Positions 10,642 to 10,867 of a stretch of DNA of 11,286 bases are shown in pieces. The notes under the pieces are model-generated. The model ran no database searches and was not told the origin of the DNA. It saw nothing but the letters and a program-made list of their open reading frames with translations. This DNA is from Escherichia coli (GTDB lineage Bacteria > Pseudomonadota > Gammaproteobacteria > Enterobacterales > Enterobacteriaceae). How positions within the stretch are numbered: the first letter of the stretch is position 1; each line of letters starts with the position of its first letter. The DNA lies in the NCBI RefSeq assembly GCF_003334765.1, contig NZ_QOWT01000056.1; one strand, written 5' to 3'. The translations under genes and the position numbers were made by a program.

Positions 10642-10867
10642 AGCAATATTCGCTATTTTTATGTAATAATTTTATAAATGCGTTCAAAATAATAATCAAG
10701 TACTAATAGTGATATTTTAAGGTCTGATTTTTACGTGATAATTCAGGAGACACAGAATGCGCATAAAAATAACAGCATAAAACACCTTACCACCACCCAA
10801 GAATTTCATATTGTATTGTTTTTCAATGAAAAAATATTATTCGCGTAATATCTCACGATAAATAACA

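Follow-up and report, generated by a model that had tools for sequence, protein, structure and literature searches.

The DNA considered here (the window, which is the whole analysed stretch of 11,286 nucleotides) corresponds to the ydeN-ydeM-yddA-yddB-pqqL-gadB segment of Escherichia coli K-12 in reverse complement of MG1655, and MG1655 positions are obtained by subtracting the window coordinate from 1583012 (NC_000913.3). In this record gadB occupies 1570645..1572045 and pqqL 1572407..1575202, both on the minus strand. For the interval between the two genes no annotated feature was found in the MG1655 RefSeq record or in the other genome records examined. At the pqqL-proximal end of the pqqL-gadB intergenic region (10606-10966 in the window) lies a hairpin of the pqqL intrinsic terminator (10612-10636, plus strand), formed by a 10-bp stem and a 5-nt loop and followed by AUUUU (-18.6 kcal/mol, z = -5.0), which is kept in the alignments. 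At the gadB-proximal end lies the GAD box TTAGGATTTTGTTATTTAAA, the site of GadE (10868-10887, plus strand). The gadB transcription start is placed at about 10939 on the plus strand by the distance-to-TSS column of published ChIP-exo tables, in which the centre of the GadE peak stands at -62.5 and that of the GadX peak P6 at -184. Between terminator and GAD box the sequence contains a very short open reading frame (the mini-ORF), whose origin and significance are the subject of this analysis.

A Mini-ORF With a Canonical Shine-Dalgarno Geometry

Read directly from the sequence, a Shine-Dalgarno-like AGGAG (10745-10749, plus strand) is followed by the 7-nt spacer ACACAGA (10750-10756) and by ATG CGC ATA AAA ATA ACA GCA TAA, encoding MRIKITA (10757-10780, plus strand; 1572255..1572232 on the minus strand of MG1655). 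The mini-ORF had been noticed from the letters of the window alone, and its position, spacing and translation in that sequence-only reading are exact, as is its placement upstream of the GAD box. The surrounding 441 bases agree with K-12 strains at 100% identity, and 5,407 of the 5,426 complete genomes of E. coli contain a match to them; six matches of the intergenic region in this search fall on plasmid-labelled records. The geometry had also been described as equal to that of the annotated genes, which is correct: gadB is the only gene of the window with a comparable AGGAG, and the Shine-Dalgarno sequences of yddA, pqqL and ydeM are poor.

How often such a geometry arises was judged from the window itself. 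The pattern AGGAG-N5-9-ATG is present in four copies on both strands, compared with 1.07 +/- 1.04 in dinucleotide-preserving shuffles, and only the gadB copy is the start of a gene. The other three are the mini-ORF, a copy antisense within yddB that opens an ORF of 3 codons, and a copy (AGGAGG-N-ATG) that opens an ORF of 18 codons on the minus strand (3345-3413). The frequency of the pattern in the window is no higher than chance. The 18-codon ORF, which starts a short way beyond the end of ydeM and runs antisense into the 3' end of this gene, is probably due to chance as well. Searching the full-text literature for MRIKITA or for the DNA of the mini-ORF returned irrelevant matches only, and an Rfam scan of 10400-11286 at a permissive E-value yielded chance-level matches and no family.

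Start Codon and Frame Across Escherichia

The intergenic region was compared in an 11-genome alignment of eight E. coli lineages chosen across the identity range and three other Escherichia species; the loci of the latter were found by a search with the C-terminus of PqqL, an exact 30-mer search of genome contigs around the GAD box having given no match. The draft contigs of these three species end ~470-1090 nt past the pqqL stop, two of them no more than ~240 nt into gadB, presumably due to the gadA/gadB duplication, which breaks assemblies. Two of the E. coli lineages, BKQ37E and MS20658 (one of them B2-type), have pqqL entered in their annotation as a pseudogene that is truncated ("missing N-terminus"), which suggests that the yddA-yddB-pqqL cluster was partly deleted in some lineages and the gadB upstream region kept.

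The ATG is present in 3 of the 11 genomes, and ATA, AAG, AAA or ATT is found in its place elsewhere. All three are E. coli (3/8 lineages: K-12, ABW_A19 and BKQ37E), with no ORF-breaking change. O157:H7 has ATA, and KL53, JNE25 and PEC403 have AAG, in each case with no ORF-breaking change, while the B2-type strains MS20658 and 2022H048 combine AAA with a 1-nt insertion in the spacer and a 1-nt deletion in the ORF. None of the three other species has the ATG: Escherichia sp. MOD1-EC7003 has ATT, SCPM-O-B-8794 has AAG with nothing else noted, and Escherichia sp. E1V33 has AAA and lacks both the Shine-Dalgarno sequence and the stop codon. At 10745-10749 these species read AGGTG, AGGAG and CGACA, respectively, while AGGAG is unchanged in 8/8 sampled E. 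coli. Conservation of the reading frame in related genomes, which had been proposed as a check on the mini-ORF, is thus not found in the orthologous regions, where the ATG is mostly replaced and the B2 strains carry the 1-nt deletion.

Exact searches with a 59-mer (10729-10787) extended these alleles to the 5,426 complete genomes. The ATG allele of K-12 gave 2,735 exact matches and that of ABW_A19 five, the ATA allele of O157 gave 320 and the AAG allele of KL53 gave 140; the B2-type allele (AAA plus deletion), to whose group ATCC 11775 (the type strain) and Nissle 1917 belong, gave 467 exact matches and 1,022 including close variants. The start codon is accordingly absent in at least 1,482 of the 5,426 genomes (at least 27%). 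The exact K-12 allele is found in about half of them, making ATG the commonest allele (at least about 50%). Judged from the aligned genomes, AAG or AAA, one or the other of which stands at this position in two of the three non-coli species, is probably ancestral and ATG derived from it by an A-to-T change.

Taken together with the chance-level count of the motif, the lack of conservation of start codon and frame indicates that the mini-ORF is most likely an accident. The sequence-only reading had left the choice between a translatable mini-ORF and a chance occurrence; the 7-nt spacing does suit a ribosome-binding site, and of the two readings it is chance that is supported.

Conserved DNA Blocks and GadX Occupancy

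Parts of the mini-ORF are nevertheless well conserved, probably because the sequence sits within a region bound by the acid-resistance regulator GadX, which had escaped the sequence-only reading. In the 11-genome alignment, 16 of 20 columns are invariant in a left block (10724-10743) and 14 of 16 in a right block (10762-10777), as opposed to 2 of 7 in the spacer (10750-10756), 1 of 3 in the ATG (10757-10759) and 21 of 80 in the downstream stretch 10781-10860. Variability in the region is among the highest at the second and third positions of the start codon, with T at 10758 in 5/11 and G at 10759 in 7/11 genomes. Column conservation therefore tracks the DNA blocks rather than the ORF.

The blocks belong to an imperfect inverted repeat in which 10715-10733 and 10764-10782 are 79% complementary. 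Its arms are connected to a third copy further upstream by an inverted match that is perfect over 10 nt and by ATTTTTAYGTRATAATT, which occurs as a direct repeat at 10655 and 10727. As a separate observation within E. coli, the pqqL-proximal part of the region that coincides with the GadX ChIP-exo zone (10640-10749) is clearly better conserved than 10781-10860, and most of the substitutions and indels of 10640-10860 fall in this latter stretch, before the GAD box.

The recognition motif of GadX and GadW is the 20-nt sequence AKGKCTGWTWTTWWYMYVAK (Seo et al., 2015; PMC4918353). A match to it with a single mismatch, AGGTCTGATTTTTACGTGAT (10720-10739, plus strand), makes up the left arm of the inverted repeat; 0.01 such matches are expected per window, and shuffling the intergenic region 2000 times gave none (0 of 2000). 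The second-best match of the intergenic region is an inverted copy with four mismatches, TATGCTGTTATTTTTATGCG (10760-10779, minus strand; core 10762-10777), complementary to codons 2-7 of the mini-ORF. A copy as good was found in 87 of 2000 local shuffles (p about 0.04), moderately better than chance, and this match is best regarded as suggestive only.

In vivo occupancy by GadX has been mapped by ChIP-exo, with three peaks for gadBC, P6 to P8, reported in U00096.2 coordinates at signal-to-noise ratios of 42-44 (Supplementary Table 3 in PMC4918353). We converted them by adding 1976 to obtain U00096.3 positions and from these the window coordinates. The conversion places the published GadE peak (1570144-1570175) at 10861-10892, where it encloses the GAD box. 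P6 (1570261-1570301, TSS -184, S/N 42.2) then lies at 10735-10775, P7 (1570302-1570342, TSS -225, S/N 43.95) at 10694-10734 and P8 (1570345-1570385, TSS -268, S/N 41.97) at 10651-10691, which gives an occupancy zone of three adjoining peaks from 10651 to 10775. P6, which is entered as activating gadBC (PMC4918353), covers the Shine-Dalgarno sequence and, of the 24 bases of the mini-ORF, 19 including the ATG. All three peaks are 41 bp wide, and these equal widths suggest one broad signal split into segments rather than three resolved sites. Deletion of gadX changes gadB by log2 -0.6, a value that describes the effect on the whole gene only (PMC4918353). The GadX-bound upstream region of gadBC is thus already described, and the site itself is nothing new.

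Elsewhere in the window, the published GadX peaks P10 and P9 for ydeN map to 212-237 and 374-404, upstream of this gene (PMC4918353), and no good match to the GadX motif was found in either of these two peak regions. The ydeN transcription start is implied at ~458, and the start codon is likely ATG 488 rather than TTG 455.

Origin of the Mini-ORF

The reading that we favour, with a probability of roughly 0.85, is that the mini-ORF is an accidental, lineage-specific by-product within the distal GadX-bound DNA upstream of gadBC and not a gene. An imperfect inverted GadX/GadW repeat is made up of two AT-rich, conserved blocks, 10720-10743 and, on the opposite strand, 10760-10779, and the body of the mini-ORF (codons 2-6) is nothing else than the right arm read on the plus strand. 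The AGGAG belongs to the inner edge of the left arm, and the ATG falls into the poorly conserved spacer between the arms, where the A-to-T change probably made it from AAG or AAA in K-12-like lineages. The conservation of the blocks would reflect binding by GadX, and possibly by GadW, that helps to activate gadBC, with no meaningful translation to be expected and the mini-ORF lying outside any known transcript.

For translation, it had been argued at the outset, transcripts would have to come through from pqqL or from an unrecognised upstream promoter. This holds: the terminator hairpin separates pqqL from the mini-ORF, no sigma-70-like site on the plus strand was found upstream of the mini-ORF in a simple promoter scan, and the ATG, at -182, precedes the start of gadB transcription and is therefore outside the gadB leader. 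The same scan of 10606-10966 gave a single promoter-like site, which runs on the minus strand from 10741 to 10714 and so overlaps the GadX motif.

Best placed among the alternatives, although improbable, is pervasive translation, by which strains with the ATG would initiate on rare transcripts that read through from pqqL or start at a weak promoter, giving rise to a functionless MRIKITA. The canonical Shine-Dalgarno sequence and spacing speak for it. Translation in the ATG strains is possible given that ATG is the commonest allele and that AGGAG is invariant in E. coli. The accessibility of the Shine-Dalgarno sequence in hypothetical read-through RNAs is predicted at ~0.6-0.7, like that of gadB, and is not discriminating. 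The tail of the terminator comprises 4 U only, and some read-through from pqqL is therefore plausible; the intergenic region has moreover been classed as a "promoter island" with dense promoter-like signals (Panyukov and Ozoline, 2013; PMC3661553), which makes weak spurious initiation possible. In addition, hundreds of unconserved tiny ORFs give a Ribo-RET signal in E. coli. Against these points stand the strength of the hairpin upstream of the mini-ORF, the missing promoter-like hexamers on the plus strand and the poor expression of pqqL. The Term-seq tables that were searched (PMC7815308) contain no 3' end or other feature at 15720xx-15723xx and only a 3' end internal to pqqL, which is weak negative evidence.

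A functional upstream ORF or micropeptide, which would modulate read-through into gadBC or the stability of pqqL mRNA or act as a peptide, is very unlikely and largely refuted by the non-conservation. The good Shine-Dalgarno geometry and the position beside a heavily regulated operon are all that favours it, but O157:H7, the B2 strains and several other lineages have lost the start codon, 3/3 of the other Escherichia species lack it, the B2 strains are frameshifted, and the ORF lies ahead of the gadB transcription start. Between 10780 and gadB no terminator-like site or alternative hairpin was found on the plus strand, where the sole strong hairpin is the one upstream at 10612-10636. Nothing corresponds to the mini-ORF upstream of gadA, a gene under parallel regulation; homology between the gadA and gadB upstream regions begins only at about the GAD box. 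Just as doubtful is the variant in which the A-to-T change in K-12-like lineages gave rise to a mini-ORF of recent, de novo origin that is translated from RNA reading through from pqqL, overlaps a GadX operator and affects read-through into gadBC or local RNA stability; if it were true, the mini-ORF would represent the natural birth of a proto-gene inside a transcription-factor binding site. The least probable proposal, in which the real coding unit would be a longer overlapping ORF of 37 codons starting with GTG (10735-10848, plus strand) or of 30 codons (10809-10717, minus strand), both of which exist in K-12, was rejected on account of frames broken in orthologous regions, the former being cut to 6-10 codons in JNE25, PEC403, the B2 strains and E1V33 and altered in length by indels elsewhere, the latter having no Shine-Dalgarno sequence before its ATG, and indels of other strains falling inside both.

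The finding is of little consequence in itself. A canonical pair of Shine-Dalgarno sequence and ATG can arise in AT-rich regulatory DNA by a single substitution, and local conservation here follows the transcription-factor site and not a coding frame, which calls for caution when mini-ORFs are called from sequence alone. If ribosomes did translate the mini-ORF, a further example of pervasive translation with no function would be added to those known.

Comparison With Known Systems

Three groups of known systems can be set beside the mini-ORF. Leader peptides and regulatory upstream ORFs such as tnaC, pheL and mgtL resemble it in being short ORFs ahead of a regulated operon. In enterobacteria such leader ORFs are conserved, lie downstream of the transcription start of their operon and have attenuator structures after them, whereas the mini-ORF lies 182 nt upstream of the start, has no attenuator and is not conserved.

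Very short E. coli ORFs that are not conserved were reportedly detected by Ribo-RET in the work of Meydan et al. and of Weaver et al. in 2019. Those of a later Ribo-RET study share with the mini-ORF a length of few codons, a canonical Shine-Dalgarno sequence and ATG, and the lack of conservation and of codon-level constraint, but they have measured initiation footprints on known transcripts, while the mini-ORF is known from its sequence (Stringer et al., 2021; 10.1101/2021.07.02.450978). Their discoverers conclude that purifying selection does not act on most of the very short ORFs that give initiation signals, and consider most of them non-functional (10.1101/2021.07.02.450978), and a positive ribosome signal alone would therefore be no argument for function. 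A Ribo-seq study under acid stress covered ORFs of 10-70 amino acids only.

The closest likeness is to the GadX/GadW sites. Sites of these AraC-family regulators upstream of gadBC, gadA, gadW/gadY and slp are said to have been described by Tramonti et al. in 2002, 2006 and 2008. The inverted second copy under the mini-ORF differs from them in being weaker, with its four mismatches to the motif. In location, the blocks coincide with the GadX/GadW sites of gadBC, whose published peaks at -184, -225 and -268 map to this very stretch (PMC4918353), and in sequence the left arm fits the published 20-nt motif closely; like those sites, both blocks are AT-rich and are conserved as blocks of DNA and not as codons.
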